Shown: positions 13,100-53,652 of the stretch, in pieces
Layout of the letters: each line of letters starts with the position of its first letter
Position numbering within the stretch: the first letter of the stretch is position 1
Assembly: GCF_054482525.1 (NCBI RefSeq)
Contig: NZ_CM137006.1
DNA length: 64,000 bases
Reading direction: 5' to 3' (one strand)
Made by a program: the position numbers and the translations under genes
Notes under the pieces: generated by a model
Seen by the model: the letters and a program-made list of their open reading frames with translations, nothing else
What the model was told of the DNA's origin: nothing
The model's database searches: none

Positions 13100-13126
13100 A
13101 ACCCTCTGTTTTTACAGAGGGTTTTT
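13100..13126. repeat. Prophage left attachment site (attL); guaA terminator hairpin AACCCTCTGTTtttACAGAGGGTTTTT
   Basis: Near-identical copy at 53625-53652 (3 mismatches in loop); lies just after guaA stop and before the integrase. Confidence 0.7.
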
Positions 13127-13188
13127 GTTTTTATGTATTCATCTCTATTCACTCTACACCATATTTTTCGGCGGTACAGGTGACGGTA

Positions 13189-13203
13189 TTACCCTAAAGG
13201 TAT
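13189..13203. promoter_or_regulatory. TTACC-N5-GGTAt palindromic motif (variant) upstream of integrase
   Basis: Read directly: TTACCctaaaGGTAT. Confidence 0.35.
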
Positions 13204-13245
13204 ACTCTCATACCGTCATGAAAATGGTTTCTATACGGGTGAATT

Positions 13246-14496
13246 GTGCTTACCGATACAAAATTAAAAAACCTCAAGCCGCAGGACAAACTGTACAAGG
13301 TCTCCGATCGTGACGGGCTGTATGTAGCTGTGCTTACGTCAGGCACGGTCTCGTTTCGCTATGACTACCGTATCAACGGTCGTCGCGAAACACTGGTAAT
13401 CGGGCAGTATGGGCGTGACGGTATCAGCCTGGCAGAAGCGCGAGAAGAACTGATTGCTGCAAAGAAGCTGCTTAAAGCAGGCCAGTCGCCGGCTGCGGCT
13501 AAACGTGACGGTATCAAAAAGATTCGTGGTGCCGAGACGTTTGCGGTACATACCGACAGTTATATGAAACACGTCATCCTGGCTGACAGTACCCGCGCAA
13601 TGAAGCAGGCGGTGATTGACCGTGACATACTTCCGGTTCTTGGTAACAAAATGATGGCTGAAATTACCACATCGATGGTTCGTGATTTGTGTGACCGGAT
13701 TGTCGAACGCGGTGGTCGGGCAACAGCAGTACAGGCCAGGGAGATCATCAGCAGCGTATACCGTCACGCCAATGACCGTGGTCATGGTTTGTTTAATCCT
13801 GCGGCTGACATTAAACCTTCGTCTATCGCCATATTTAAACCACGAGAGCGAACACTGACACCAGAAGAAATTGGCCTGTTCTTCCGCACGCTGGATGCCA
13901 TTGGTGCTATGGGCACTATGAAAATGGCTTTAAAGCTGGTGCTTATCACTATGGTTCGTAAAGGCGAATTCACCAACGCAACGTGGGATGAAATAGATTT
14001 TAAAAAATGGACATGGACAATTCCTTCAGACCGCATGAAGGGAAGCCGGGCGCACGTTATTTACCTGCCTAAACAGGCTCAGGATATATTGGTCGGGTTG
14101 CAGATGTGCGCTGGTGGAAGTGAATATCTGGTTCCTGGTCGTTACAATTTCCGGAAGCCATTATCTAATGCCGCGCTGAACTCTCTGATCGACAGAACGG
14201 TGAAAATAATAAATGAAGATGGTGAGCATATTCAGGGCTTCACCGTACACGATATGCGCCGTACAGCCAGTACGTTGTTGCATGAGGCTGGTTATCCTTC
14301 AGACTGGATTGAAAAGGCTCTGGCACATGAGCAGAAAGGTGTGCGCGCCGTATATAACAAAGCGGAATACGCCAGACAGCGCGCCTACATGTTGCAGCAG
14401 TGGGCCGATATGATTGATTCCTGGATTAACGGGGAGCATACGGATCTGATTCCGTTCTCCCCGTCGAAGTTTGAGAAGTGGATGGCGGGGGAATAA
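13246..14496 (+). CDS. int: Tyrosine integrase (P4-type, with N-terminal arm-binding domain)
   Basis: 416 aa ORF with GTG start; N-terminus typical of P4-family integrases; catalytic-domain R...HDMRRT...Y pattern. Confidence 0.85.
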   Translation: MLTDTKLKNLKPQDKLYKVSDRDGLYVAVLTSGTVSFRYDYRINGRRETLVIGQYGRDGISLAEAREELIAAKKLLKAGQSPAAAKRDGIKKIRGAETFAVHTDSYMKHVILADSTRAMKQAVIDRDILPVLGNKMMAEITTSMVRDLCDRIVERGGRATAVQAREIISSVYRHANDRGHGLFNPAADIKPSSIAIFKPRERTLTPEEIGLFFRTLDAIGAMGTMKMALKLVLITMVRKGEFTNATWDEIDFKKWTWTIPSDRMKGSRAHVIYLPKQAQDILVGLQMCAGGSEYLVPGRYNFRKPLSNAALNSLIDRTVKIINEDGEHIQGFTVHDMRRTASTLLHEAGYPSDWIEKALAHEQKGVRAVYNKAEYARQRAYMLQQWADMIDSWINGEHTDLIPFSPSKFEKWMAGE

Positions 14497-14690
14497 CGTT
14501 TAATAGTTCTGCTGATTTTCTTCCATCTCTGCTTCTGCTGCCAGTGATTCAATTTTGTTTTCGAATATTGCTGACAGTGTTGCAAATTCAGCATCAGTGA
14601 CAGCGGGAATTGGAACAAACCTGATCCCGCTGTGTGCAAGCATGTTTGCAGTTTCAAGGCATTTTCTTAAATCTGCTGGTGATGCCCTGT

Positions 14691-15353
14691 TCATGCAGCA
14701 CGCTCCCGCCCCTGGTTGTCTGTTGGTGACATCGGAGAATTGCTGAATGCATTTGTTAATCCGCCAATATCCAACGCGTATCCTGGGTGTAGTTGCACTG
14801 CCGGGCCTTCGCACTGGTTACCCCAAACATCGAAGCCATGAGACGTCTGGCGGGCGAACAGTTCAATGCGAGAAACATCGCCTAACAATTGCACAAGTTT
14901 TTCACGAACGACATCTGGTTTTCTTGAATGCTCAAGCCGCGGTGCGGTAAATGACTGAACGATACCTGCATTAATGCGCGGAGGTAGTTTTCCCTTTACT
15001 GCAAACAGGCAATCTTCACTATTGGCGCGAGTCATGTGTCCCATACCCATAACCAGTTTATCTGGTTGTCGACTACCACATTTTATCCACGTGAAGCCCT
15101 TCATGGTCATCAGACGGAATCCCCAGGCTTCAACAACTTTTAGTGCTTCGAGTGGTTGTGTTGGCACCCACCACATGGCCAACAGACAGTTTTCATCGGC
15201 CAAATCCCACACAGGAAGGCGGCAGATATCCAGCACACTCATAACAGGATATTTAAAACCGGCACCGCGATTACCATCTGCGGCTTTGTCCCGGTATACC
15301 CAGGGTGGATCTGCATAGATTAGTGTGTATTTCTTAGTCATAAACCACCCCAC
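14691..15353 (-). CDS. DNA N6-adenine methyltransferase, MT-A70-like (orphan)
   Basis: 220 aa ORF; LIYADPPW motif IV; no adjacent restriction endonuclease candidate. Confidence 0.7.
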   Translation of the reverse strand: MGWFMTKKYTLIYADPPWVYRDKAADGNRGAGFKYPVMSVLDICRLPVWDLADENCLLAMWWVPTQPLEALKVVEAWGFRLMTMKGFTWIKCGSRQPDKLVMGMGHMTRANSEDCLFAVKGKLPPRINAGIVQSFTAPRLEHSRKPDVVREKLVQLLGDVSRIELFARQTSHGFDVWGNQCEGPAVQLHPGYALDIGGLTNAFSNSPMSPTDNQGRERAA

Positions 15354-15633
15354 AACATCCTATGCCGCTATAGTCGCCACGGCGAAGGCCGTTACCTTTT
15401 GTGATACATTGGTCCCTGCGAACCGCGATCCTTGCACGTTCAACATCACCAGAAGCAACATCCATACACTGAAGCCAAAGGTGAGCGGCAATGCGGAATT
15501 GCCCTTTTTTCTCTCTTTCAATCGCGCGTTTTTCGATCTCTATCGCCGCAGGAGTAACGGCGACAATCTTTGAAGGGCTGCGCATTGAAACCTTGTTCAT
15601 GTGATATTTTTCAAGTCGGCTTAACTTTCTCAC
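15334..15633 (-). CDS. Hypothetical phage protein
   Basis: 99 aa ORF in early-left operon overlapping methylase start; start codon uncertain. Confidence 0.35.
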   Translation of the reverse strand: MRKLSRLEKYHMNKVSMRSPSKIVAVTPAAIEIEKRAIEREKKGQFRIAAHLWLQCMDVASGDVERARIAVRRDQCITKGNGLRRGDYSGIGCCGVVYD

Positions 15634-15742
15634 TTAATCCAACCCTCTCTGAAAATTAATGCCAGCAGATAAAGCCATGCTGAAACAGAGGCCAGGAATA
15701 AGTACCATCCTGACCATTTGCTCCAGTGCCTTAGCAGCACAC

Positions 15743-15991
15743 TCATGCAGCGTTGCTCACAGGACGATATACACGTTGCTGAACAGGAGGCTTTTTACCC
15801 TGGAACTCTGCCGGGCTTGCTGCCTGACGTTCATCAAGCCAACGCTCAACTTCATCACGGTTCCATGCGCAGCGTTTATCGGTGATATACCAGCGTTTAG
15901 GAAATTCCCCTGCGCGCTCCATACGGTCGATAGTGCTCCATGACAGTGGCACCACCGCCAGGAGTTCCTTCTTACCTAATGCACCTTTCAT
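15743..15991 (-). CDS. AlpA-family phage transcriptional regulator / excisionase-like
   Basis: 82 aa; HTH region resembling AlpA (STIDRMERAGEFP...WLDE). Confidence 0.6.
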   Translation of the reverse strand: MKGALGKKELLAVVPLSWSTIDRMERAGEFPKRWYITDKRCAWNRDEVERWLDERQAASPAEFQGKKPPVQQRVYRPVSNAA

Positions 15992-16040
15992 AAATACCTC
16001 TCTTGGTTGCAGTGCGGCGCGCGTGGCGCCGCGGTGGTGG

Positions 16041-16922
16041 TTACATAGATGTTTCGTTTAATTCTTCCCGACGAACGCTGTAAACGTCGGTGGCTTTTGC
16101 CAGCAGTTCGTCATCATCTGAAAGTTTTTGTGCAATGTATTTGTAAGCCTTATCCAGTTCGGAGACAGTGCTGTAATTCATCGCTGCGCTGGTAAAGGCC
16201 ATCAGCATTTCTTCTGGCTCACGGCTATCCGCTTTACGCGTTTGCTCATCAGGCTTTTTCACTGATTTAGCGTTGATCAGACTGTTCATTCCCGCAGCCG
16301 TAGTCATTTGCGGAGTAATGTCTCGCTCAACGCGCGGTGCCGTTTCCTGTAATTCGTCAGGGGTGTAAACACCGAGAAGTACATCAGGAGCGTGCAGGCG
16401 AGCCCATCGTTTCGTGCAAAGATAGGCAAGTTGCTGGCGCGGATCCTGTTCCCACAATGGAGAGTTACGCACTCCTGCTTGCGCCATACTGATGGTAAGC
16501 TCACGTGGTTCTGCTTCTCCTTTAAGAACTGCTGACACAGTTACCGTCAGATTCGGTGATTTATCTGTTTTGCCGTTAACATTCGACCAGTCACCGCTCC
16601 AGCGATAATTCAGGCGTGTCGCCAGCAGGCTGGAAGAGGATACGACCGCGTTTACCAACTGTGCTTCGTAGCCTAACGTTCCGTTTACCACATGCGTTTT
16701 CTGCGCCACGGCGAAAGGGTTCATTCCCCACTGTGCCGCCTGCATGGTCACCGCCAGGCAATCGGCAGGTTTGCCTTCAAGATGTTTCGGTACAGTCGCT
16801 TTGCTTTGTGACATCAACTCCGCGAAACGCACCAGTTGATTCATGCCCTCGGGGCTGAAGATTGCCGCAGCAGTGCCTACAGTTGCGCCTGGTTGTGATG
16901 TGATTGCGATATCATTGCTCAT
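16041..16922 (-). CDS. RecT/Red-beta family single-strand annealing protein
   Basis: 293 aa; resemblance to lambda Bet core (QWGMNPF...RWARL); coupled to upstream exonuclease. Confidence 0.65.
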   Translation of the reverse strand: MSNDIAITSQPGATVGTAAAIFSPEGMNQLVRFAELMSQSKATVPKHLEGKPADCLAVTMQAAQWGMNPFAVAQKTHVVNGTLGYEAQLVNAVVSSSSLLATRLNYRWSGDWSNVNGKTDKSPNLTVTVSAVLKGEAEPRELTISMAQAGVRNSPLWEQDPRQQLAYLCTKRWARLHAPDVLLGVYTPDELQETAPRVERDITPQMTTAAGMNSLINAKSVKKPDEQTRKADSREPEEMLMAFTSAAMNYSTVSELDKAYKYIAQKLSDDDELLAKATDVYSVRREELNETSM

Positions 16923-17740
16923 ACGTACATATCCTGTTTACGTGCCCAGTCAGGGCGTTTAATAATTTCCACTCCGCCCCATTCATCGTTGATGCGGCAT
17001 TCGTGATAGGTATTCAGATCCCGGCGGAACAGAGCGTGCCCGGCATCGACATCCGGCGCATCCAGCTCGAACACGCGTACCGGATACCGACCACAATCAA
17101 TGCTTTCGCTCACGGCAAGAAAGAAAAAACCATGTGGCTGACCAGTAACCCTCATTGCGCCTTCGCGGTACATTGCGTCCTGCACGTGGTAGCGGAACTC
17201 CTCGATGTGGCGTGCAAAACGGTCCATATCTGTAACCTTTTTCACGTCGACGATCACGTTGTGCTCTTTCAGCCATTTGTCTGGACGAATGCGGCACAAC
17301 TCACCAGTCTCTTCATCGTTCCAGTACATTGATGCTTCGCAGTAACCAGGTGCTTCCAGCATCCAGCGTGCCGCCGGGTGAGCCATTGCGCTATCACGCA
17401 TCAGCTCCAGTTTCCGCCACTGCTCGGCATCAAGTACCGTAATCCCCATATCCGCCACATCACGAAGAAATGCCTCTTCGTCAGCTTTACCTTGTTTCGT
17501 CCGACGATCGAATTTCGGCGAAACAATGAAGCGTTTGTCGAACTCTCCAGGCTCCAGAAGCAGACAGTGCAATGCGGTTCCCATATCCAGTGCAGACTTT
17601 TTCTCTTCGTCTTCTGGTGCTGCCTGAACCCATTTAAGAAGCGCCGGATTCTTGGCAACCATGTCCAGTTGCGACTTACTCACGCCGTCCCCGGCGTGGT
17701 AGTCTTCGTTGCTGATGTCGAAATAAATTCCCGGCTTCAT
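16919..17740 (-). CDS. YqaJ-type PD-(D/E)XK exonuclease (recombination exonuclease)
   Basis: 273 aa; overlaps annealase gene by 4 nt; typical exo-annealase pair. Confidence 0.6.
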   Translation of the reverse strand: MKPGIYFDISNEDYHAGDGVSKSQLDMVAKNPALLKWVQAAPEDEEKKSALDMGTALHCLLLEPGEFDKRFIVSPKFDRRTKQGKADEEAFLRDVADMGITVLDAEQWRKLELMRDSAMAHPAARWMLEAPGYCEASMYWNDEETGELCRIRPDKWLKEHNVIVDVKKVTDMDRFARHIEEFRYHVQDAMYREGAMRVTGQPHGFFFLAVSESIDCGRYPVRVFELDAPDVDAGHALFRRDLNTYHECRINDEWGGVEIIKRPDWARKQDMYV

Positions 17741-18051
17741 GCCGCGTCCCTCTGCCCATCAAGCTGATCAGCCAGATCCCAGCGGGCGATAATTGCCATT
17801 GCCTCGCGCCGGTAGGAATCCATCAGTTCTTCGAACTCAGGGCTGTCTTTAGCTGCTTCCAGCACTTCCTGGCGAACTCCTTTGCCTGTTACAACGTCGA
17901 AAGTTGAGGCCAGTTGATGAAGCCGGATGCTCTCAATCAGTTCAACTTGTCGGTCATATAGCTGTTCTGACAGGCGGTAGTCCTTGTCGAATGCCAGCAT
18001 GATTTTTTGAAGATTTTTCTGCTGATTAACGTTCATTATCAGCCCTCCCAT
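17737..18051 (-). CDS. Hypothetical early protein
   Basis: 104 aa ORF, 4-nt overlap with exonuclease gene. Confidence 0.4.
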   Translation of the reverse strand: MGGLIMNVNQQKNLQKIMLAFDKDYRLSEQLYDRQVELIESIRLHQLASTFDVVTGKGVRQEVLEAAKDSPEFEELMDSYRREAMAIIARWDLADQLDGQRDAA

Positions 18052-18272
18052 ATCTCGTTATCGTTGGCCACATCGCGAGCTTCTTTGCTGACGAAAGCCC
18101 ACTTAATACCTTCCTGTAAGGTGCGGAACTTCCAGCTCATGAATCCGCATGCAGTAACGCAGTACCAACCGTTGATGATTTTCCACTGCATAACTTGTTA
18201 CCTCGGTTTGTTACCGTTGAGGTAATGATTATGCGTATTTGGTTTGGTGTCAATAGATATGAGTTAAAAAAA

Positions 18273-18287
18273 TTACCCACAAGGTAA
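18273..18287. promoter_or_regulatory. TTACC-N5-GGTAA motif at the early-left promoter position (OL-like)
   Basis: TTACCcacaaGGTAA between repressor 3' end and start of leftward operon. Confidence 0.5.
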
Positions 18288-18344
18288 TCTTGCTGGCAAT
18301 AAAAAAGCCGCCATGAGGCGGCTTACTTGCTGAAAACTATAGTT

Positions 18345-18929
18345 TTATTGTTTGCTTTTTTCGTTCTGGTTGATGACAAATTCAATGTAACTTTCGATCT
18401 TTGCTTTCTCGGTTTCGGGTAACAATGCGTAGCGCGAGCGGTCATAGTTGATAGTCGCAGGGTCGTGCGGGTGAATCAGTAATTCATAGCCGTGACGCCC
18501 GAATGCGGATGCAACATTCTCCAGGGTGGAAATGGAAACGCTGACCTCATTGTTTAACAGGCGGCTGATTGTCACCTGGGCGACGCCGGATGCGCGGTGA
18601 AGTTTTCCCTGTGTTGAAAGGTCGCGGCTTTCGCTCATCCAGCGTTCCAGGTTGTGAGCCGCCAGCTGACCAATGTCGCTTGGGCCGACAGGCTGAAAAC
18701 CTTCCTGAGAAAGCGAGCGATCGATATCAAGCCAGTTACGGGGTTTATTGGCGGCAGCTTCAATTTTTCGCGCAACCTGGTCGCCGATAACCTTCTTACC
18801 AAGAGCCCAGCGGTTTACCAGATTTGCCTGAGTTCCAAGTTTTTCTGCCATCCGCGTCTGAACACCATTGAATTCACGGTCGATCAAGTCGTTGAGATTT
18901 TGCCTGCGGACGTCCTGGATACTTTTCAT
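18345..18929 (-). CDS. Prophage repressor, two HTH domains, no LexA-like peptidase domain
   Basis: 194 aa; two HTH-like segments; divergent from Cro-like gene; no GxSM/K autocleavage motif seen. Confidence 0.6.
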   Translation of the reverse strand: MKSIQDVRRQNLNDLIDREFNGVQTRMAEKLGTQANLVNRWALGKKVIGDQVARKIEAAANKPRNWLDIDRSLSQEGFQPVGPSDIGQLAAHNLERWMSESRDLSTQGKLHRASGVAQVTISRLLNNEVSVSISTLENVASAFGRHGYELLIHPHDPATINYDRSRYALLPETEKAKIESYIEFVINQNEKSKQ

Positions 18930-18984
18930 TTTCTGGAAAATCGCCTCATATATGAATCAGTAGATGATTCAATTTAAAGCAATA

Positions 18985-19047
18985 TTACCCAACAGGTAAA
19001 TGCACCCCATAGGTAACTATCCTTGATTTTTGTTACCTTATGGGTGA
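18985..19047. promoter_or_regulatory. Operator region between repressor and cro-like gene: TTACCcaacaGGTAA (18985-18999) and TTACCttatgGGTgA (19033-19047)
   Basis: Two palindromic sites in the divergent promoter region. Confidence 0.55.
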
Positions 19048-19083
19048 ATATTTATTATCTGAAATAAATATCAGGCAATAGCT

Positions 19084-19314
19084 ATGAGCGATAACGGACA
19101 TTTCGATTTCAAAAAGCACTGGCTTGCACTTACTCCGGATGAGCGTGAAGCCTTCGCACAGGAAGCCGGAACGACGAGTCACTATATACAGACTCACTTA
19201 ACAGGTAAGCGCAAAATGCCAGGTAAGGTATTGATGAATGGGCTTTTTAAAGCCTGTAAAACAAGACAATGGCTGCGCTCAAAAGCAGAACTGGCATACT
19301 TCTTCTACTCATGA
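19084..19314 (+). CDS. Cro-like HTH regulator
   Basis: 76 aa; HTH segment; divergent from repressor. Confidence 0.55.
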   Translation: MSDNGHFDFKKHWLALTPDEREAFAQEAGTTSHYIQTHLTGKRKMPGKVLMNGLFKACKTRQWLRSKAELAYFFYS

Positions 19315-19336
19315 TATCCAGCCACAACCCTCTGTA

Positions 19337-19360
19337 GACCGCCACCCGGCGGTCTTTTCA
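19337..19360 (+). terminator. Rho-independent terminator after cro-like gene
   Basis: GACCGCC-accc-GGCGGTC followed by TTTT. Confidence 0.6.
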
Positions 19361-19369
19361 TATCTATTC

Positions 19370-19384
19370 GTACCTCAAAGGTAA
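19370..19384. promoter_or_regulatory. gTACC-N5-GGTAA motif (variant) after cro terminator
   Basis: GTACCtcaaaGGTAA. Confidence 0.35.
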
Positions 19385-19462
19385 TAAAAAACCAAATCTG
19401 GTTGATCAAATTTTCCAATTGTGCAAAATAGCCAATATCAATAACAAAAAGGGGCGGAAAAA

Positions 19463-19675
19463 TTGAAGATAGTAACCAGAATGGAGGCCGCAAAAGCCGG
19501 GTTAAATCGCTATTTCACAGGAAAGCGGTGCCGTCACGGCCATCTCTCTGAAAGGTATGTTCTGAACGGAACATGTGTTGAATGTGCAATGAATAGCGCC
19601 AACCGCCATCGTAATGAATTTGCTTGTGCACTAAAGAGTGCAAGAGGGGAAACCTATGGCAAGCAGCTGGATTAA
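19463..19675 (+). CDS. Small Cys/His-rich protein (cII position)
   Basis: 70 aa, TTG start with AAGGGG RBS; C..H..C..C pattern. Confidence 0.4.
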   Translation: MKIVTRMEAAKAGLNRYFTGKRCRHGHLSERYVLNGTCVECAMNSANRHRNEFACALKSARGETYGKQLD

Positions 19676-20486
19676 GGTTGAAGTTATCACTCCTGATAAA
19701 CCTGAAATTTTTCAGATAGCAGAAATTCTGGGTATTGATCCAGATGCTGTTCTTGGAAAGCTGGTTCGTATATGGGCATGGGCTGACCAGCAAACAATAG
19801 ACGGTAACGCTGGCAGCGTTACAAAAGGAGTACTTGATAGACTCGCTTTTATTACAGGATTTGCTGACGCCCTCATTAGCGTCGGATGGCTTGCTTATCA
19901 TGACGGCAAACTAATTCTTCCAAACTTTGAGCGACACAATGGAGAATCATCGAAAAAACGTGCACTTACGAATAGAAGAGTGGCAGAGCATCGAAAACGA
20001 GTAACGCAAAAAGTAACGCCAACAGCGTTACAAAAGGAGTTACCAGAGGAAGAGGAAGAGGAAGATATATATAAAACCCCACACATAGCGCACGTGCGCG
20101 AGGGTGCTCCGACCAGTGAAGCGAACAGTACGCCGTTGCAGGTGGCAGAACCTGAATTTCTGGATGGCCTGAGTGAACCCATCGGGAAATTTCCGATGAC
20201 AGATGGCTGGCTACCGTCGCCAGATTTTCGGCGGCGTGCTGCGCTGTGGGGAACGGCCCTGCCGGAACCGGAATTTACACCTGCTGAACTTGCTGCATTC
20301 CGGGATTACTGGATGGCTGAGGGCAAAGTGTTCACGCAGGTTCAGTGGGAACAAAAATTCGCCAGGCACGTAAATCATATCAGGGGAAAATCAAAAAATG
20401 CCGGGAAAAGCGATGAGCTTGACTGGAATAACACTGACTGGATAGAAGGGGTGTGGGATGAAATCAACTCCAGAACTTCTCAATGA
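19638..20486 (+). CDS. Replication initiation protein (O-like / DnaT-domain-like)
   Basis: 282 aa; acidic linker; immediately upstream of and overlapping lambda-P-like gene. Confidence 0.5.
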   Translation: MQEGKPMASSWIKVEVITPDKPEIFQIAEILGIDPDAVLGKLVRIWAWADQQTIDGNAGSVTKGVLDRLAFITGFADALISVGWLAYHDGKLILPNFERHNGESSKKRALTNRRVAEHRKRVTQKVTPTALQKELPEEEEEEDIYKTPHIAHVREGAPTSEANSTPLQVAEPEFLDGLSEPIGKFPMTDGWLPSPDFRRRAALWGTALPEPEFTPAELAAFRDYWMAEGKVFTQVQWEQKFARHVNHIRGKSKNAGKSDELDWNNTDWIEGVWDEINSRTSQ

Positions 20487-21234
20487 GTACGATCGCTTAC
20501 GTGAGCATGGTGTTGCTGTGCATGAAGAGCGGCGTGACAGCAATGGCAAAAAGGAGCAGGTTGCTAGAATTTTCAATGAACTATTTGTCCAGTTACAGGC
20601 TGCATTTCCTGCAAGCGTTTCGACCATAAGGGAGCAGAACAAACTTAATGAATTCCGTAAGCAATGGATGCTTGCGTTTCTGGAGAATGGGATCACTACA
20701 ATGGAACAGGTTAACGCTGGTATGCGCCACGCCCGCGCCAGTGAATCTCCGTTCTGGCCGTCGCCAGGGCAATTCATCAAGTGGTGCAAAGACAGCAAGA
20801 TGGTTCTTGGCGTCACCATTGACGATGTGATGGCGGAGTTTCACCGGTACAGCAAGGAAAAAAGTTTATATCCTGGTGGTCCCGAAAGATTCCCGTGGCG
20901 ACATCCGGTTATGTACTGGGTCGTATGTGATACCCGCCGTGCAATGTATCAGCGCCAGCTTAGCGAGATTGAGGTTGAGAAACACGCGCGCAGGCTGCTC
21001 GATGATTGGGCGAAAAAGGTGGCTTCCGGACAGCAGATACCCGATCCGGTGATCAGCATACAGGCAAAGCCAGAACCCATGAGTACGCCTCCTGACACTG
21101 GGAGAGACGTTTACCATCCACCAGGGCGAAGTTTCGGGTGCATGCCTAACGCCGCCACCCTGGGGGGAATAACACCGGCGCAGTGGCTGATAGAGGAATA
21201 CAGGCGGGGAAAGGCGGCAGGATTTATCAAGTAA
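20458..21234 (+). CDS. Lambda P-like replication protein (helicase loader)
   Basis: 258 aa; strong resemblance to lambda P (FPAS..., NGITTMEQVNAGMR). Confidence 0.8.
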   Translation: MKSTPELLNEYDRLREHGVAVHEERRDSNGKKEQVARIFNELFVQLQAAFPASVSTIREQNKLNEFRKQWMLAFLENGITTMEQVNAGMRHARASESPFWPSPGQFIKWCKDSKMVLGVTIDDVMAEFHRYSKEKSLYPGGPERFPWRHPVMYWVVCDTRRAMYQRQLSEIEVEKHARRLLDDWAKKVASGQQIPDPVISIQAKPEPMSTPPDTGRDVYHPPGRSFGCMPNAATLGGITPAQWLIEEYRRGKAAGFIK

Positions 21235-21271
21235 TACCAGCGCGATAGCGCATTTTTTTACGCCTACATGA

Positions 21272-21286
21272 TTACCTGTTGGGTAA
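21272..21286. promoter_or_regulatory. TTACC-N5-GGTAA motif
   Basis: TTACCtgttgGGTAA downstream of P-like gene. Confidence 0.45.
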
Positions 21287-21333
21287 TAAAATGTTCTAAT
21301 CTCTATTGATTTCATGTCTTATGTGGTTTTTAA

Positions 21334-21348
21334 TTACCTAAGGGGTAA
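21334..21348. promoter_or_regulatory. TTACC-N5-GGTAA motif immediately upstream of DUF1064 gene
   Basis: TTACCtaaggGGTAA ending 4 nt before ATG at 21352. Confidence 0.45.
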
Positions 21349-21351
21349 ATC

Positions 21352-45460: not shown

Positions 45461-45472
45461 ATAGGTGACTAC

Positions 45473-45769
45473 ATGCAAGCTATAGGATTCATTGTTTATA
45501 TCGTCGTTGGTCTTTTTCAGTTGGCAGCAATTATGGCTGGGCTTGAATCATGGTGGGGATTGCACTGGATAATTGCAGCCCCCATTGCTTTCATCGTGAG
45601 CTATATTCCATTTGTTGGAGCGATTGTTGGTATGGTTGGCGCTGTGGATGTATGGCGGTGGGAGTGGTGGCAGGCTGGCCTTCTCTTCTTTGGTGGGATC
45701 ATCTTTGCTATTGTCTGCGGTGGAATGTCATCATTTTTCGAATGGCTATCATTCAGAAAAGGGACGTGA
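45473..45769 (+). CDS. Small membrane protein (about 3 TM)
   Basis: 98 aa hydrophobic ORF. Confidence 0.5.
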   Translation: MQAIGFIVYIVVGLFQLAAIMAGLESWWGLHWIIAAPIAFIVSYIPFVGAIVGMVGAVDVWRWEWWQAGLLFFGGIIFAIVCGGMSSFFEWLSFRKGT

Positions 45770-46032
45770 CATGTCACAGGCCGCTTTCGCGGCCTTGTTT
45801 TTAACGAATGCCACCGCCGCCCGGACGGGAATCCGCAGAACGCCCACCGCAGCGGGAGCCGTCAGCGGCAGTATCGCTGTCGTGCTGACAACGACCGGCA
45901 AAGGCCTGAGTTGAAGCTACCAGAGACAACAAAACGAACAGTGCAGCAAATGCTTTTTTCATTGTGAAATTTCCATCTATAAGCCACCTCAATGTGGCGT
46001 CAATGAGTGTAGCACTGACTTTTGTTTCGTCC

Positions 46033-46055
46033 ACAAAAAATCCCGCAGCGCGGGC
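46033..46055 (-). terminator. Rho-independent terminator of the minus-strand cargo operon
   Basis: Minus strand reads GCCCGC-GCT-GCGGG-A-TTTTTT directly after toxin stop codon. Confidence 0.7.
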
Positions 46056-46601
46056 TTATTCCTTCCATTTATCAGAAAAAAGATCTTCTTCTAAAGGCAT
46101 TGGTTCTGTTTTTGTTTTCTCAAAGAATTGATAACTGATAGTGATTGCTGCCTCTTTAAACTCTTCTTGCTCAGTTATGTTGTGGGCATCTGCGTCAACA
46201 AAAAACATAACCAGCGCATCACGATTGTGATTTACCGAATAAACTAAAAAGCAATTACTTGTTGGTATGCATTTTACTTGCACAGACGCTATTTTTTTCC
46301 ATGCATCCCAAGATGATTTTTTACCAGTGTGTTTTTTATCACTATCTTCTGGAATATAGTCTTGGTTATCGACATGAGTATGCCTGACATTTAGTTTAAG
46401 CATTTCTGTCGGACGAGCAAATGCAGCATCTTTACCAAGAGATGGATGGTATCCCGTTTTCCAATACTGGGTAAAGGCATCAGATACTTTCTTCAGCTCA
46501 AGATCAGATGCACAAAGGGCCGAGAAATTTTGCGTATGCAATACTCGACCCTTATATCTGACAATTTGATTTTTATCATTCTGCGACGCAGACGAACTCA
46601 T
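46056..46601 (-). CDS. YafO-like toxin candidate with N-terminal extension
   Basis: 181 aa from ATG with AAGGA RBS; C-terminal part resembles recalled YafO core. Confidence 0.4.
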   Translation of the reverse strand: MSSSASQNDKNQIVRYKGRVLHTQNFSALCASDLELKKVSDAFTQYWKTGYHPSLGKDAAFARPTEMLKLNVRHTHVDNQDYIPEDSDKKHTGKKSSWDAWKKIASVQVKCIPTSNCFLVYSVNHNRDALVMFFVDADAHNITEQEEFKEAAITISYQFFEKTKTEPMPLEEDLFSDKWKE

Positions 46602-46755
46602 AATTTTCCTTATTGTTACGAGAATCAAAGAAAGCGCGGGATACGCGACTTGCGTGATCTTTTGTCATAGTAACTTTTACGCACTCTACGCTTCCATTGA
46701 AAGAACGTCTTGCGGCAGCTTGCGCTCTACGCATCTGCAATTTTTCGTTTCGCAT
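46576..46755 (-). CDS. Small basic protein, candidate antitoxin/regulator
   Basis: 59 aa hand-translated ORF (below ORF-track cutoff) with GAGGT RBS; 3' end overlaps toxin start by 26 nt. Confidence 0.3.
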   Translation of the reverse strand: MRNEKLQMRRAQAAARRSFNGSVECVKVTMTKDHASRVSRAFFDSRNNKENYEFVCVAE

Positions 46756-46815
46756 GACATTACCTCATATCTCATAAGTTCATTACACGGATTAATAAAA
46801 ATGAAACCAATCCGT

Positions 46816-46830
46816 TTACCCTTGAGGTAA
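46816..46830. promoter_or_regulatory. TTACC-N5-GGTAA motif upstream of small ORF/toxin pair
   Basis: TTACCcttgaGGTAA. Confidence 0.45.
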
Positions 46831-46902
46831 TAGTACGCTATTCACCCACAGTCTGCAATCTGTACAGAATTATTTAAAGGCACATCCCTGTGCCGCCGCC
46901 CG

Positions 46903-47598
46903 TCAGAAGAACCCTGCCTTGTCGTTGATGTACTCCGCGTGCGTCTGGATATCACGCAGGCATTTGCTCACACCGACGATGTAGCAGAACATGGTGGTCA
47001 GCTCCGCCGCCGCGCCCGATACGTCGTGCCCGTCGTCCTGTAACTGGTTCAGCAGATTCATCAGCAGTGAGTTCTCCGTCAGGCCGAGAACACCAGACGG
47101 CGAATGAATCAGGCTGCGGTAGCCGGGCTTCAGTGGGGCACTGTAGGTTTTGTTCTCTATCTTCATCGCCTGCATCACTGCTGATGCTGTGGCGTTGGCT
47201 ACCTGGTCGGCAACCATCTTTATGCGCTCTTCCTGCGGGAGCGAGTTTTTAATGTAACTTCCGGTGCGGCGGATCTGAGGAAGAACCTCACCTGTAACCC
47301 ATTTACGAAAGCGGTATGGGATAGTGCCTGGTGTCACTGCGTCGCGGCAGCGGAGGATCAGTGTGTAGAGGCCTGACTCGGAGATGATGATCGATTCTTG
47401 CTCACCGCCAGGGGTGTCGGTTGAAGCGACGCCCTTCTCATCATCATCAAGTTTTCGAACAGCATCTCGATGGTTTGCTATGCCTATAGCCCGACAAACA
47501 TCTGAAGCGATAAACCATGGCTCACCATTAATGACGATTACTCGTATATCGGCTTGGGATTCGAAAGAAAAAATGGACGTGCTTTTTGTAGCTGTCAT
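46903..47598 (-). CDS. BRO-N domain antirepressor-like protein
   Basis: 231 aa; N-terminal Bro-N-like pattern (INGEPWFIASDVCRAIG); C-terminal domain paralogous to ORF 47914-48171. Confidence 0.6.
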   Translation of the reverse strand: MTATKSTSIFSFESQADIRVIVINGEPWFIASDVCRAIGIANHRDAVRKLDDDEKGVASTDTPGGEQESIIISESGLYTLILRCRDAVTPGTIPYRFRKWVTGEVLPQIRRTGSYIKNSLPQEERIKMVADQVANATASAVMQAMKIENKTYSAPLKPGYRSLIHSPSGVLGLTENSLLMNLLNQLQDDGHDVSGAAAELTTMFCYIVGVSKCLRDIQTHAEYINDKAGFF

Positions 47599-47867
47599 AG
47601 TGGTTACCTTTTAGTCTGGTTAATCACCACTACCGACGCCAATCGGTTGGTGGTGAGCTGTGCAGGGTTGGCGTAACCGGCTAAAAGGACCCGGCGCACC
47701 TTTCGGTGCCCCCACACAGCCCACCATAATACGAATGTGGCCGTGCTATACGCATAAAAAAACCGCTTGCGCGGTGAATGCGCCTTTTAGTAATCCGGGA
47801 CGCCAATCCCGGCACTGGATTTTGCCAGTGCCCGATTACTATGGCACAAGAGGAGTGCGATGTAAAT

Positions 47868-47882
47868 TTACCGCAAAGGTAA
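47868..47882. promoter_or_regulatory. TTACC-N5-GGTAA motif upstream of BRO-N gene
   Basis: TTACCgcaaaGGTAA. Confidence 0.45.
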
Positions 47883-47913
47883 ATATAAGCACTTCATTTG
47901 GTAATTGCAAACC

Positions 47914-48171
47914 TTATCTGGTTTGTTTTCGTAATTGTTCGGCACAATAGTCGAGATGTGTTTGCAGATCCTGCATAGACATCTGTGAGCTGGTGACGTA
48001 GTTAATCAGTGCAGTCAGTTCGGCAAGTGGGCCATCGACATTAAATCCATCCTTATCTAGATCCCGGAGTAATTTCATCAAGTGCGATCCCTCCACCAGT
48101 GACTTGACGCCTCCCGGCGTGTGAATCCTTTCGGTAAATCCGTCTTCCAGTGGATAGTGATACTGCTGCAT
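47914..48171 (-). CDS. Small LexA-controlled protein, Tum-like antirepressor candidate
   Basis: 85 aa from ATG with GGAG RBS; ~45% identity by eye to C-terminal 60 aa of adjacent BRO-N protein; LexA box upstream. Confidence 0.5.
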   Translation of the reverse strand: MQQYHYPLEDGFTERIHTPGGVKSLVEGSHLMKLLRDLDKDGFNVDGPLAELTALINYVTSSQMSMQDLQTHLDYCAEQLRKQTR

Positions 48172-48191
48172 CTTAATCTTCTCCATGCAAT

Positions 48192-48211
48192 AACTGTATA
48201 TTTATACAGTA
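48192..48211. promoter_or_regulatory. LexA (SOS) box AACTGTATATTTATACAGTA
   Basis: CTGT-N8-ACAG with AT-rich spacer, near-consensus; upstream of minus-strand gene 47914-48171. Confidence 0.75.
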
Positions 48212-48248
48212 TCAAATAATTTGTTTGCTATCCAGCACGTTTTGCAAA

Positions 48249-48263
48249 TTACCTAAAAGGTAA
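48249..48263. promoter_or_regulatory. TTACC-N5-GGTAA motif in divergent region between cargo operon and tailspike
   Basis: TTACCtaaaaGGTAA. Confidence 0.45.
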
Positions 48264-48367
48264 TATCTATTTATATTCACAGTATTTCTATCCATATGTG
48301 GTTTTTCAGGTAATAGAATAACCAGATATGCGGCGCAACGGGTGCTGCGACTATCTGGAGATTTAAC

Positions 48368-51142
48368 ATGACGGTCTCAACCGAAGTTGACCACAACGAA
48401 TACACAGGTAACGGCGTTACGACATCATTTCCGTATACCTTCCGCATTTTCAAAAAAACAGACCTGGTTGTTCAGGTGTCTGACCTGAACGGTAACGTAA
48501 CAGAATTGGTTCTGGATACCGGTTATACGGTAACTGGGGCGGGCACTTATAGTGGCGGTTCTGTTGTTCTTCCGTCGCCGCTTGCTGCTGGCTGGAAAAT
48601 CACGATAGAGCGTGTGCTTGATGTGGTGCAGGAGACTGATCTTCGCAATCAGGGAAAATTTTTCCCCGAAGTTCATGAGGATGCATTTGACTACCTGACG
48701 ATGCTGATCCAGCGATGTTTTGGGTGGTTCAGACGTGCATTGATGAAACCATCTTTGCTTGCAAAATATTACGATGCAAAGCAAAACAGAATTTCTAACC
48801 TTGCAGATCCATCACTTGAGCAGGATGCTGTAAATAATCGCTCAATGCGTAATTATGTCGATGCTGCAATCGCCGGGGTTGTTGGTGGTTTTGGTTGGTT
48901 TATTCAGTATGGTTTTGGGGCAGTATATCGAACGTTCCAGGATAAGATGCGGGATATCGTCAATGTTCGCGATTTTGGTGCAAAAGGGGATGGCATTACT
49001 GACGATACAGACGCAATAACAAATGCCATCATTTACTGCGCATCTAACGGAAAACGCCTGAAGTGGGATTCTGGTGTGTATTTGATTAGCCGCATAAAAT
49101 GCGGCGGGGATAATTATAACTATGACTGGGTAGCTGATGGCAAGGTTGTCTTAAAGTCAACCGCAAAAGAGCCTCTTGGTCCAAACTGGATTGATGATTA
49201 TTTCATAAGACTCGAAGGTGGAGATGCCACGCCAATTGACTATAATTCAACAATAAATCCTGGTGACACATCAATATCAATTAACTCAGCATATTCTGTT
49301 GATGCAGGCGATATAATTATGATTCATGGTAATCGCTTAATTCAGACAGATAATAGAGGACAGGCTTGTGAAGGTGAAATGCATGTTGTTACTGCTTTTG
49401 ATAATGCAACAAAAAAAGCGGAGATATCAGGTGCATTTTATTTTTTCTACTCTGCGAGCAATGATTACTCAACGACCGTAACAGCATCTGTATCCGGAGG
49501 TGAATTCTCATTTGGTAATGATGCAACATTAACAAAACAATACAATCAGGTAAAAGTAACAGGTGTCACCGGAGCTAACGCCGGAATATCAAGATACATA
49601 ACTCATTGGGATTACGACACTAAAACAGCAAAATTTGAATATGCTCAGGGACCATTCCCGTTTAAACCATCTGTTGGAGACGTGTTTAAAATCACAAGAA
49701 AGGCAAATATATATAAAAGAAAACCATGCTACGGCAGAATTGTCGGTGATTTCAATTTTGAAAGACCTGTCACGCAGAACGCATCTCCTGGTGATTTGGG
49801 GTTCCGTGGTCTTGTGATAGATGGCGCTGTTGATATGCATATAGAAGGAATAAAACTAATCGGCTTTTCAGAAACTGGAATTTTTCTTGAGTCATGCTAC
49901 AGAACGAAAATAATAGAGCCATATATTGAATACTCAAACCGTGCATATGATTTAACAAACGGCACTGGTTATGGTGTTGAAATATACAATAGCAGCTATT
50001 GCACAGTCGTGGATATGATAGCATTTGCTTGCAGGAGGGGGCTTGATGTAAGCGGGACTCAAATGGTATCACTGTATAATAACATTATAAATCCAACGAT
50101 GATGGGTGGTGGAACTGCATATGATGGAGTTAAATTTTTCCCTGATGGCGATACAAGAAATTCATGTTGCGGTGGACACGGCCCATCATACGAAACAACT
50201 TTTACAGGCGGCAATTCAGTCAATTTGTATTATGCTGGTGTAATACGCGGATTAAATGAAGTGTATGATGGAATGAACGCCAGGGGATTTAGCGGACCGG
50301 CTCCTTTTTTTGTAAGATATAGTGGTGGTGGGTTCACGATTCAGAACTGTAATTATATTGATGGTTTTACTGAGATGTCTTTGCCATACAACTTGAGGTA
50401 CAAACCTGTGAATGCAACTCAACGTAATCACAGACCTTTTGTTTTTATTGAAACAACTCTGGCACAGACAGACAGAAACTCTTACTATAAAGAACTTCCT
50501 GTTGTTATTAAGAATAATACCGCAAGGACTGTTCTCAAGGGCTTTTTACGTTTTGAGGTTAATGATGGCCTCACCCCTCTAATCCAAAATATTTATTTTG
50601 GTGGTAATTTATGCATGGCGAACCCAGAAACATCAGACTCTGTATCAGGGCAAACAGAGGCAGTAATGGTTTATTCATCAGTTCCTGGTGCAATAATTGT
50701 TCGAAATTTCCATGATCTTGGCGGTAACAGAATTGTTCCTGTTGGAGCAGGATACAGATACTGCGGTATGTTCAACACGCCAGATGGAATAGCAGGAACA
50801 ATAGTTCAACCAGACGGAAAATATCTAATAACACTTGAAGCCAACAAATCTACAAGTATCCTTGTTGGTGGATATGTCCCATGTGTTCGCCTTGATATGC
50901 ACGACATACTTGATATTCATGGGGTAATTGCAGTTGGTGTTCTTATTCATCGTGGTGAGGCAATTGATTTTTCTCCTTTAAAAGAAATTAATAAGCAAAA
51001 TGTTGTATTGAAAACCGGAGTTCTTTCAGATAATGATGGTGATGAAAATAACTTAAATATTTCGTTTGACTTTGCAACCATATATTTAAGCAACAAGATG
51101 CCAAATAAGATTCAACTATCTATTGAAGTATCAGGAGTGTAA
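48368..51142 (+). CDS. Tailspike / receptor-binding protein
   Basis: 924 aa; N-terminal virion-attachment-like region, large repetitive beta-rich body; position typical. Confidence 0.6.
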   Translation: MTVSTEVDHNEYTGNGVTTSFPYTFRIFKKTDLVVQVSDLNGNVTELVLDTGYTVTGAGTYSGGSVVLPSPLAAGWKITIERVLDVVQETDLRNQGKFFPEVHEDAFDYLTMLIQRCFGWFRRALMKPSLLAKYYDAKQNRISNLADPSLEQDAVNNRSMRNYVDAAIAGVVGGFGWFIQYGFGAVYRTFQDKMRDIVNVRDFGAKGDGITDDTDAITNAIIYCASNGKRLKWDSGVYLISRIKCGGDNYNYDWVADGKVVLKSTAKEPLGPNWIDDYFIRLEGGDATPIDYNSTINPGDTSISINSAYSVDAGDIIMIHGNRLIQTDNRGQACEGEMHVVTAFDNATKKAEISGAFYFFYSASNDYSTTVTASVSGGEFSFGNDATLTKQYNQVKVTGVTGANAGISRYITHWDYDTKTAKFEYAQGPFPFKPSVGDVFKITRKANIYKRKPCYGRIVGDFNFERPVTQNASPGDLGFRGLVIDGAVDMHIEGIKLIGFSETGIFLESCYRTKIIEPYIEYSNRAYDLTNGTGYGVEIYNSSYCTVVDMIAFACRRGLDVSGTQMVSLYNNIINPTMMGGGTAYDGVKFFPDGDTRNSCCGGHGPSYETTFTGGNSVNLYYAGVIRGLNEVYDGMNARGFSGPAPFFVRYSGGGFTIQNCNYIDGFTEMSLPYNLRYKPVNATQRNHRPFVFIETTLAQTDRNSYYKELPVVIKNNTARTVLKGFLRFEVNDGLTPLIQNIYFGGNLCMANPETSDSVSGQTEAVMVYSSVPGAIIVRNFHDLGGNRIVPVGAGYRYCGMFNTPDGIAGTIVQPDGKYLITLEANKSTSILVGGYVPCVRLDMHDILDIHGVIAVGVLIHRGEAIDFSPLKEINKQNVVLKTGVLSDNDGDENNLNISFDFATIYLSNKMPNKIQLSIEVSGV

Positions 51143-51178
51143 TTGTATCAATTTGCTAAATTAAAAAAGGATAAAAAT

Positions 51179-51463
51179 ATGGATACAACACCAATAACAC
51201 ATGCAGTATGCGCGGTTATTGCGCAGATACTGGTTGGCCTTTCTACCGGAAACTGGGCTTACGGTGCGATAGCCGGTTGTACGTTCTTCATTGCGCGTGA
51301 ACACACCCAGGCAGAATATCGCTGGATAGAAAAGTTTGGGAAAGGGAAACGTATCAACATGCCATGGTGGGGAGGTTTTGATCCACGCGTGTGGGATGTG
51401 GGAAGTCTGTTGGATTTTGCTGTTCCTGTCATTTTTTGTTTTTGTATTTATTTCTCTATTTGA
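51179..51463 (+). CDS. Small membrane protein after tailspike
   Basis: 94 aa from ATG with AAGGA RBS; two hydrophobic segments. Confidence 0.4.
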   Translation: MDTTPITHAVCAVIAQILVGLSTGNWAYGAIAGCTFFIAREHTQAEYRWIEKFGKGKRINMPWWGGFDPRVWDVGSLLDFAVPVIFCFCIYFSI

Positions 51464-51683
51464 CCGCTACCGCGCCATCAAATGGCGCGGTATTCAACCC
51501 GATCTCCATAGTTTGAATCATTTCTGTACTGTTGTTTCTTCAGTGTTATGTAAAAGGTGAGCCTTATTATCGGCATGAAAACAGGGGATTGACGATGTTG
51601 AAGTAACAAAAAACCATAAATGGTTTATCATGCATAATGCTTTACTGTTCAGGAGGTAGTTATGCATATAAACGGTGGAAAAC

Positions 51684-52088
51684 ATGTCAGCTCAACTAAC
51701 CAGTGAAACTTTAAATCAGTGGCTTAGCATGAGTTCTCTGGCGGCGGTGATAGCAGGAGTTCCTCCTGAGGTTGCTTTGGGGGCTTTGGCTGGAGCGGTA
51801 ATTTTTGTTACCTCTGCGGTAGAGTATCCCATTCGTCGTCGTGTACTCTTGTCGATGCTTAGCTTTCTCTGCGGCCTTCTTTTTTATAAACCAGCAGCAT
51901 CAATTCTTATCGGCATAGCCAGCATGATCCCTACTATCACGCAGGACTCTTTTGAAAAAGGGATTGTTTTCTCTGCTGGCGCATTCGTGTCAGCAATTGT
52001 TGCTGTGCGTATTGGTATATGGCTCTACCACCGTTCCGATAATCCACGCGAGTTAATTCCGGGGAGAAAAGACGATGGTAACGCATGA
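51684..52088 (+). CDS. Membrane protein, holin candidate
   Basis: 134 aa; several TM segments; upstream of endolysin. Confidence 0.4.
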   Translation: MSAQLTSETLNQWLSMSSLAAVIAGVPPEVALGALAGAVIFVTSAVEYPIRRRVLLSMLSFLCGLLFYKPAASILIGIASMIPTITQDSFEKGIVFSAGAFVSAIVAVRIGIWLYHRSDNPRELIPGRKDDGNA

Positions 52089-52383
52089 GTTTTTTTTGCT
52101 TATCACCAATGCAGTTATTTGTACTGGCATAGCAATTCGTGTTGTCACATTCCGGCGTAACGGATCTCAACATCGAAGATGGGGGGGGTGGCTTGCTTAT
52201 TTCCTGATTGTTGCTGCGGCCAGTATTCCGGTTCGTGTTGCCTATGCAATCTGGTTCCGCACGCCAATGGCTGTGGATTTATCTGAGGTCATTATCAACG
52301 CTGTCATGCTCGCTGCGGTTATTAAAACGCGCGGTAACGTCGTTCAAATTTTCAAAGTATCGAGGTCTAAACATGGAGATTAA
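52075..52383 (+). CDS. Holin-like membrane protein
   Basis: 102 aa; 3 TM-like segments; directly upstream of endolysin. Confidence 0.45.
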
Positions 52384-53002
52384 ACAATTCCAGCGAGCTG
52401 CTGGTATTAGCGAGGCGCTGGCCGCACGCTGGTTCTCGCATATAACTTCTGCGATGAAAGAGTTTGGTATCAGCAAACCAGAAGATCAGGCAATGTTTAT
52501 TGCTCAGGTCGGGCATGAGTCTGGAGGTTTCACCCGGTTGCAGGAAAATTTCAACTACAGCGTCAGCGGACTGGCTAACTTTGTTCGGGCTGGGCGTCTC
52601 ACTCAGGGACAGGCCAACGCACTGGGTCGCCGTGCTGGTGAACCGCCATTACCACTCGAGCGCCAGCGTGCGATCGCAAATTTGGTGTACAGCAAACGCA
52701 TGGGGAACAATGCCCCCGGCGATGGCTGGAATTACCGGGGTCGCGGACTTATCCAGATTACCGGTTTGAATAACTATCGTGATTGCGGAAACGGCCTGAA
52801 AGTGGACCTGCTGGAGAATCCTGAACTGTTGGCGCAGGACGAATACGCGGCTCGTAGCGCGGCGTGGTTCTTCTCCAGCAAAGGCTGCATGAAGTATACC
52901 GGAGATATTGCACGTGTAACTCTGCTTATCAATGGTGGCCGGAACGGCATTGATGACCGGCGCGCGCGATACATCACTGCCAGTAAGGTGCTGGCGGTAT
53001 GA
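52373..53002 (+). CDS. Endolysin, GH19 chitinase-like
   Basis: 209 aa from ATG with GAGG RBS; conserved HESGGF and [12 protein letters not shown]-type motifs. Confidence 0.7.
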
Positions 53003-53496
53003 TCTGGGCATTCGCAAAAGCATACTGGAAACAGTTGGTTATCATGGCGATGCTTGCTGTTCTGGTCATATCAGGAGTTGTAGCCTGGAATGCACACGGT
53101 AGTCGTCAGTACGACGCCGGGTATGCACAGGCACAGGAAGATCAGAAACAGGCTGATGATAAGGCCAGGTCACAACGTGATCAGGAGAAAACACAAATTG
53201 AACGTGAAGCACAATCCCGTATCGATGTGGCGCGTGTTGATGCTGAGCATGCTAATGCCGCTGCTGACAGCCTGCGCGCCGAGCTTGACAAAACCAAGCG
53301 ACTCGCCGAACACTATACCGGATCTTTCCCCACTGGCACGTCAGCCAGCAAGGTCATCGGTGTGCTCGCCGACATGCTTGAAGAAAGCAACCGAGTTTAC
53401 AACGCAACAGCAGCTGAGGCTGAAAAGTATCGGATTGCAGGAGAATCCTGCGAACAGCAATACGATTCACTGAAGAAACAAAAATCGTGGCACTGA
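52999..53496 (+). CDS. i-spanin (Rz-like)
   Basis: 165 aa; N-terminal TM then charged coiled-coil; overlaps endolysin stop. Confidence 0.65.
53225..53473 (+). CDS. o-spanin (Rz1-like) embedded in Rz gene, +1 frame
   Basis: Lipobox LLTAC after hydrophobic leader, Pro-rich mature region; start codon uncertain. Confidence 0.5.
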   Translation: MWRVLMLSMLMPLLTACAPSLTKPSDSPNTIPDLSPLARQPARSSVCSPTCLKKATEFTTQQQLRLKSIGLQENPANSNTIH

Positions 53497-53624
53497 TTTC
53501 CGGTGACGGTATATAAAACGGTACGGCGAAAATCAGGTTGCAGAAAGTTGTTATCAGTCAATTGGTTATGTGTGTCGTAAATAATTGAGTGGGAATAATT
53601 TGACCCTGCACTATGAATGAACAA

Positions 53625-53652
53625 AACCCTCTGTTACTACAGAGGGTTTTTT
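53625..53652. repeat. Prophage right attachment site (attR); AACCCTCTGTTactACAGAGGGTTTTTT
   Basis: Direct repeat of 13100-13126; host genes resume immediately after. Confidence 0.7.

Follow-up and report, generated by a model that had tools for sequence, protein, structure and literature searches.

In a 64,000-nucleotide stretch of DNA from NCBI RefSeq assembly GCF_054482525.1 (contig NZ_CM137006.1; the whole stretch is referred to here as the window), a prophage of the phiV10/epsilon15-like genus Uetakevirus lies between guaA, the gene for guanosine monophosphate (GMP) synthase, and yfgI. The crossover that placed it there occurred, with a probability of roughly 0.94 based on comparison of junctions, within a 17-bp core at the 3' end of guaA, and not within the hairpin repeat found near both ends of the element. 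Both the prophage group and its attachment site are already known, and the analysis has little significance beyond correct annotation. Its main use is a corrected map, on which the prophage ends at the guaA core rather than at the hairpins.

The attachment core at the end of guaA

The two prophage junctions, attL and attR, were aligned with the attP site of phiV10 and with the empty guaA-yfgI site (attB) of E. coli strain B20159. The sole segment common to all four is the 17-bp sequence ATTGAGTGGGAATGATT, which comprises the final four guaA codons (Ile-Glu-Trp-Glu) and the stop codon, followed by TT. To the left of this core attL equals attB and attR equals attP, and to the right of it attL equals attP and attR equals attB; in other words, attL is composed of host-left, core and phage-right DNA, and attR of phage-left, core and host-right DNA. 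The attL core, the true left junction, occupies 13039..13055 (+), and the attR core, ATTGAGTGGGAATAATT, the true right junction, occupies 53584..53600 (+). The latter reads AATAATT for AATGATT, a G to A change at 53597 (core position 14) relative to attL, attP and attB. A pattern search located these two copies of the 17-mer in the window, one with one mismatch, where 0.01 would be expected by chance. In a blastn comparison with the whole phiV10 genome homology extends from exactly 13039 (phiV10 26720) to exactly 53600 (phiV10 26736), and with guaA as the query most E. coli genomes match only to window base 13055. The limits of phiV10 homology and the shared core therefore assign 13056..53600 (+; 40,545 bp) to the prophage proper, instead of the 13100-53652 of the preliminary description. 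Nothing was found that contradicts this placement of the core.

The repeat on which the preliminary description was founded is nonetheless real. It consists of a 27-nt hairpin with a T tract, present as direct copies at 13100-13126 (AACCCTCTGTTTTTACAGAGGGTTTTT) and 53625-53651 (AACCCTCTGTTACTACAGAGGGTTTTT) that are identical at 25 of 27 positions, with both mismatches in the loop. The pattern AACCCTCTGTTTTTACAGAGGGTTTTT was matched 0 times in 100 shuffles of the window, and a repeat finder paired 13092-13126 with 53617-53651 at 86% identity. Both copies fold into G+C-rich stems of 10-12 bp followed by T runs (z-scores of -5.8 and -4.8), the attR copy with a T run on the minus strand as well, and both are picked up by a terminator scan. 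The expectation of one predicted terminator hairpin after guaA at attL and another before yfgI at attR thus holds. The left hairpin, extending over 13100..13133 (+) with a 10-bp stem, a TTTT loop and a T tract, is a phage-borne, predicted rho-independent terminator, as judged from attP conservation, record annotation, fold and scan. The right hairpin, at 53623..53656 with a 12-bp stem and T runs on both strands, is the native, predicted bidirectional guaA/yfgI terminator, identical to that of the empty site and likewise supported by fold and scan.

It had been proposed that the phage recombined inside the terminator hairpin of guaA, with the imperfect repeat of 27-28 bp as the core and a hybrid hairpin left at each junction; in favour of this are the close match of the two hairpins and their location near both ends of the element. 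This model is already refuted by the empty-site and attP comparison, which places the repeat off the insertion junctions, and it retains next to no credibility. The attL hairpin, described as directly following the guaA stop codon, starts 46 nt downstream of it and 44 nt past the core, and both the hairpin and this 44-nt spacer are phage DNA, identical to phiV10 attP and unlike the 24-nt host spacer, which differs in sequence. The attR hairpin, 24 nt past the attR core, is the sequence that follows guaA in the empty site. Phage homology begins 61 nt before the attL hairpin and ends 24 nt short of the one at attR. The loops are unmixed, the attL copy being exactly that of attP and the attR copy exactly that of attB, such that one hairpin, with its spacer, is wholly phage and the other wholly host. 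Nor was the attL hairpin regenerated from a split host hairpin: a complete phage-borne hairpin, with the phage-type spacer, is kept in the attP of every Uetakevirus examined (phiV10, epsilon15, SPN1S, Tyrion and BUCT711), a conservation that spans phages of Escherichia, Salmonella, Enterobacter and Klebsiella. The 17-mer is also the core that has been published (PMC9782041).

The integrase and its binding sites fit the crossover at the 17-bp core. The tyrosine integrase (13246..14496, +; 416 aa, the same length as that of phiV10) carries the Pfam domains Arm-DNA-bind_3, Phage_int_M and Phage_integrase and was also recognised with PHROGs, and arm-type integrase (Int) sites are found on both sides of the core. 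Five copies of the decamer GTGACGGTAT are present in the window, where 0.06 would be expected, and both the decamer and its relative positions are those of the sites annotated as integrase-binding in epsilon15. One copy is located 71 nt upstream of the attR core (P arm; 53503..53512, +), and the other four are spread over the roughly 720 nt that follow the attL core, at 13180..13189 (+; P' arm, matching the epsilon15 annotation), 13415-13424 (+), 13505-13514 (+) and 13758-13767 (-). This is how P and P' arms should be arranged if the 17-mer is the point at which they were separated.

The attachment site in the literature and in other genomes

The core in the window is identical to that published in 2022 for phage vB_EcoP_ZX5 (PMC9782041), where the sequence 'attgagtgggaatgatt' is named as the core shared by attP, in which it lies 190 bp 5' of int, and by attB, at the 3' terminus of guaA. 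For ZX5, excision and integration at these sites were demonstrated by polymerase chain reaction (PCR) and Sanger sequencing of attB, attL and attR (PMC9782041). The integrase of epsilon15 has been placed in a cluster that targets the 3' flank of guaA (PMC8138268), and phage TL-2011b was described as inserted 'within the guaA gene' (PMC3293862). In the GenBank records of phiV10 and epsilon15 the attP hairpin, which lies between Rz and int, is entered as a rho-independent terminator, with flanking Int and integration host factor (IHF) sites. Junctions of the attL type are present in 567 of 5,426 complete E. coli genomes and those of the attR type in 512-558, from which it appears that lysogens of this junction type account for roughly 10% of the complete genomes.

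The same guaA terminus is used well beyond this group of phages. In a scan that took one genome per species, the 17-mer was found at guaA termini in many phyla, and many such loci hold other integrative elements, the arms of which carry a hairpin and T tract about 50-70 nt past the same core. The loci with the exact guaA-terminal 17-mer (L008-L127, from the scan of genome contigs, and L141, L149, L155 and L194) include very distant taxa, from Rickettsia and Clostridia to an archaeal metagenome-assembled genome, by record titles. In these loci the 17-mer is often followed by island-type arms, with GTCTGGCA repeats and the hairpin GCCCGCGTAACTGCGGGC. On some IMG/VR contigs a Uetakevirus attR core is directly followed by an island arm, which amounts to tandem occupancy of the guaA site, an arrangement of phage plus island that is seen in other genomes and not in this window. 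GIsul2, CMGI-3 and other islands at the 3' end of guaA share with the prophage the conserved guaA terminus and a related subgroup of tyrosine integrases (PMC9376610; PMC8138268), and the core given for GIsul2, GAGTGGGA, lies inside the 17-mer (PMC9376610). The island-type attL arms found in the scan have their own hairpin and T tract after the core, as in this phage, but the islands are not phages, and their arms and the hairpin GCCCGCGTAACTGCGGGC are unrelated to those of the prophage. The same logic governs integrators at transfer RNA (tRNA) 3' ends (P4, Sf6 and P22 type), in which an attP copy of the 3' end of a conserved gene reconstitutes that gene; the prophage differs from these in that its target is the end of a protein-coding gene and in that the phage adds a transcription terminator.

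Roles and origin of the two hairpins

The P4-like tyrosine integrase most probably recombined the 17-bp core of attP with the identical 17 bp at the end of guaA, and because the core is duplicated on integration the guaA reading frame is unchanged. The DNA beyond the guaA stop codon at attL is that of the phage, which supplies the entire guaA 3' untranslated region together with its predicted terminator. In the free, circular phage this hairpin would end the late/lysis operon ahead of int, and in the lysogen, in which guaA would be terminated by the phage-supplied hairpin, it is predicted to end guaBA transcripts and to shield int from host read-through. The native terminator has in turn been moved about 40.5 kb from guaA to attR, between phage Rz and yfgI, a position in which it would end both the phage late operon and yfgI. 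With a hairpin on each side, each transcription unit would therefore stay insulated whether the phage is integrated or excised. A terminator-supplying design of this sort appears to be general among guaA-targeting elements: unrelated elements at the widely conserved IEWE-stop end of GMP synthase each bring a predicted terminator of their own, which supports the view that integrative elements preserve expression of a conserved target gene.

The likeness of the phage and native hairpins calls for an explanation of its own. Across attPs the phage hairpin varies by occasional changes in the loop and by G-U or compensatory changes in the stem, and its CCCTCTG/CAGAGGG stem is also that of the native terminator of E. 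coli and of a second host type (IMG/VR loci L171 and L190). The simplest reading is that the P' arm and hairpin descend from a captured enterobacterial guaA 3' flank and terminator. Convergence or chance, rather than common descent, would be in keeping with the restriction of homology to the 27-nt hairpin, the flanking spacers of phage and host being unrelated on both sides and differing by 20 nt in length, and with the unrelated native guaA terminators of some other hosts of these phages (L209 and L230). Such an origin is nevertheless improbable, as no match of 25 in 27 bases at an equivalent position is expected by chance, a stem can be selected for without its sequence being fixed, and the same stem is native to both E. 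coli and the second host type.

Several parts of the account given here of crossover at the guaA core with a phage-supplied terminator are less certain. The function of both hairpins as terminators is a prediction, and capture, gene conversion or selection may each have given rise to the similarity between them. The core is stated to be proved for phiV10 and epsilon15 as well as for ZX5 in PMC9782041; the attachment data for those two phages are cited second-hand here. Finally, the G to A change at attR, which is private to this prophage, could reduce excision if it falls in the strand-exchange overlap.

Integrity of the prophage

Neither the 84 E. coli-type attR copies from IMG/VR loci nor the 558 from complete E. 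coli genomes contain the attR change, and an 85-bp query spanning the attR junction has no identical match in any complete E. coli genome. The change may stem from mutation, host polymorphism or sequencing error; it might show on which side the crossover took place, represent a private mutation or influence excision. In the lambda Int family of tyrosine recombinases a mismatch in the overlap can block recombination. An attR core one base off that of attL, with a change absent from all of these copies, might accordingly be the mark of a decaying remnant unable to excise, as opposed to a functional phage. We consider this unlikely, since the structural, lysis, int and xis-like open reading frames (ORFs) are all of the same or nearly the same length as in phiV10, no insertion sequence elements or truncations were seen in the prophage by blastn against phiV10, and identity to the deposited phage record HEMP4 is 99.6%. 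Moreover ZX5, a close relative, shows spontaneous induction, reaching 10^7 plaque-forming units (PFU)/mL (PMC9782041). The prophage is apparently intact.

Gene content and relatives

The chromosomal flanks have the layout of annotated E. coli genomes. On the left are guaB (9872-11407) and guaA (11476..13053, +), which in the ORF list encodes an intact 525-aa GMP synthase of the length and position found in B20159 and in the lysogen PCN033, its last four codons and stop codon falling inside the attL core; on the right is yfgI (DUF5384; 53691..54230, -), convergent with guaA. The host small RNA sroE at 3326-3417 (+; Rfam, 116.6 bits) in the left flank is ordinary chromosomal context.

The prophage is closely related to isolated phages. 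By megablast against phage records its left 20 kb is covered to 84-87% at 96.9-99.6% identity by TL-2011b, HEMP4 and vB_EcoP_ZX5, and its right 20 kb to 75-82% at 95.9-98.6% by HEMP4, phiv142-3 and phiV10; 75-87% of the length is shared with phiV10, ZX5, TL-2011b, HEMP4 and phiv142-3 at 96-99.6% identity and in the same gene order. Megablast, Pfam and PHROGs all agree with the preliminary description of an epsilon15/phiV10-like prophage with a lambdoid-style early region. Assignment to Uetakevirus follows from this genome-wide similarity to its members, which include phiV10, by the taxonomy line of its record, and ZX5 (PMC9782041). The whole-prophage comparison that the preliminary description called for found the element colinear with phiV10 in module order (terS, terL, portal, capsid, tail and ejection proteins, tailspike, lysis, attP, int, early left, repressor and early right), and its ORFs from terS to Rz, like that of the integrase, agree in size with the phiV10 annotation. 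A short-tailed virion may be assumed by homology to the structurally characterised epsilon15.

The Escherichia relatives share the integrase length, the attP core, spacer and hairpin, the arm sites and the chromosomal site at the 3' end of guaA. Mosaic differences from phiV10 are confined to the replication and nin segments, a moron at 28170-28595, a block at 45281-46891, and the tailspike C-terminus with the DNA downstream of it (48803-51611), a region in which phiV10 has an oac acetyltransferase and in which no oac-like ORF was seen in this prophage. Epsilon15 has the same core, hairpin, GTGACGGTAT arm sites and late-gene order, but shows only about 75-83% nucleotide identity in shared segments and differs in repressor, tailspike and host.

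Beyond the integrase, the early region contains a candidate AlpA-family excisionase or regulator (15743..15991, -; PF05930, phrog_66 'excisionase and transcriptional regulator'), a CI-like repressor with two helix-turn-helix motifs (18345..18929, -; Pfam HTH_3 and PHROG repressor families, a homologue of phiV10 p40) and, divergent from the latter, a cro-like gene (19084-19314). It also holds DnaT-like and lambda-P-like replication genes, and genes for NinX, an Ead/Ea22 protein, RecT with an exonuclease, an MT-A70 methylase and PerC. The late region (25937..53496, +) comprises terS, terL, portal, protease/scaffold, capsid, tail and ejection proteins, tailspike, holins, endolysin and Rz, with sizes equal to or near those of phiV10 p01-p30 and with Pfam support, and is broken by minus-strand blocks at 28174-28871 and 46056-48186.

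Several of the variable segments have features of their own. The 924-aa tailspike, with a pectate-lyase-like fold signature (48368-51142), and the DNA downstream of it to 51611 have a G+C content of 39-41%, compared with about 50% in the rest of the prophage; this region is unrelated to phiV10 beyond the N-terminal 145 or so aa, and oac is replaced by a 106-aa ORF (phrog_1443), which suggests a swapped host-range or serotype module. In the moron block between terL and portal a tRNA-Arg gene (anticodon TCT; 28795-28871, -) stands beside a 140-aa ORF (phrog_4846), and O157 typing phages 9 and 10 have the same tRNA-Arg in their annotation. On the minus strand of the second block Rfam recognises a C4 antisense RNA at 47646-47731 (79 bits) and an isrK Hfq-binding RNA at 47756-47831 (78 bits), with a c4-a1b1 target motif near threshold at 47792-47844 (-), all immediately upstream of a Bro-N antirepressor gene (46903-47598, -). 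To judge by its sequence this looks like an RNA-controlled antirepressor module of the P1/P7 immI type, also resembling the isrK-anrP arrangement of Gifsy-1, in a podovirus prophage. Downstream of the antirepressor is a 190-aa ORF (46056-46628, -) with a sub-threshold match to the YafO toxin (PF13957, 23.2 bits with a cut-off of 25).

Control of the late genes

The statement that the prophage has no recognisable Q antiterminator or phage RNA polymerase stands at the sensitivity of Pfam and PHROGs. No Q antiterminator family of the PF06530 type was detected in the early-right ORFs tested, and no RNA polymerase domain in the five ORFs of at least 600 aa (823, 862, 600, 824 and 924 aa), which correspond to phiV10 virion proteins and the tailspike. 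Antitermination by a put- or nut-like RNA was also considered and set aside, as a search of Rfam returned no such family even at E <=0.5. The lack of a recognisable Q or phage RNA polymerase applies to the whole known genus and not to this window only, and a literature search on the late genes of Uetakevirus found no papers.

The last gene before terS (25558..25896, +) encodes a conserved, regulator-like protein of 112 aa that PHROGs assigns to phrog_536, 'transcriptional regulator'. The protein has six invariant Cys residues and 739 homologue clusters, the named ones designated 'hypothetical protein' or 'phage protein'. A search of its sequence against the PDB gave no hits, its AlphaFold model, from a 37-sequence alignment, is of low confidence (predicted local distance difference test score, pLDDT, 60.5), and Foldseek of that low-confidence model against the PDB gave no match with E below 6, the ribbon-helix-helix protein NikR appearing at a probability of 0.12 only. 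The stop codon of the gene falls inside a perfect 12-bp palindrome, GTGACATGTCAC (25892-25903), which is kept in relatives from Salmonella, Klebsiella and Enterobacter (with one change) and in Salmonella lambdoid prophages (L255). Past the palindrome are a promoter-like site and, between the early-right genes and terS, a terminator-like hairpin, GCCGCCAACTATGGCGGC plus TTTATTTT (25946..25971, +; scan and fold). The hairpin is conserved in Salmonella PAT1 and Klebsiella relatives; it is no universal feature, being absent from this position in Enterobacter phage BUCT554. Beyond it, within 25946-26030, ATTACC-N5-GGTAA(C/T) inverted repeats immediately precede the terS start.

From this arrangement one could propose that the Cys-rich 112-aa protein of Uetakevirus is a late-gene regulator, an antiterminator or activator unrelated in sequence to the Q proteins of lambda, 21 or 82, acting through the palindrome GTGACATGTCAC, the promoter-like site and the hairpin at 25946-25971, and secondarily that the phage copy of the guaA terminator is a selected 'replacement part', as a general rule for elements at the 3' end of guaA. 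The proposal is doubtful. Salmonella lambdoid prophages, in their nin region, and Pectobacterium phage ZF40 carry homologues of the protein alongside a canonical Q (PF06530 in the Salmonella prophages), and because of this coexistence the protein is a weak candidate for a late regulator. In Pantoea phage AH07 the homologue adjoins xis/int, and the palindrome and a terminator travel with the gene.

In BUCT554 (L252) and Klebsiella phage ST512-KPC3phi13.3 (L253) an extra small ORF is found between the palindrome and terS, preceded, about 20-60 nt past the palindrome, by TTGACT...GATTATACT and a LexA-box-like sequence, TACTGTTTAAATATACAGTA, as might be expected of a moron under SOS control. The Salmonella lambdoid prophage (L255, 4480-4500) has a comparable CTG-N10-CAG box after the module.

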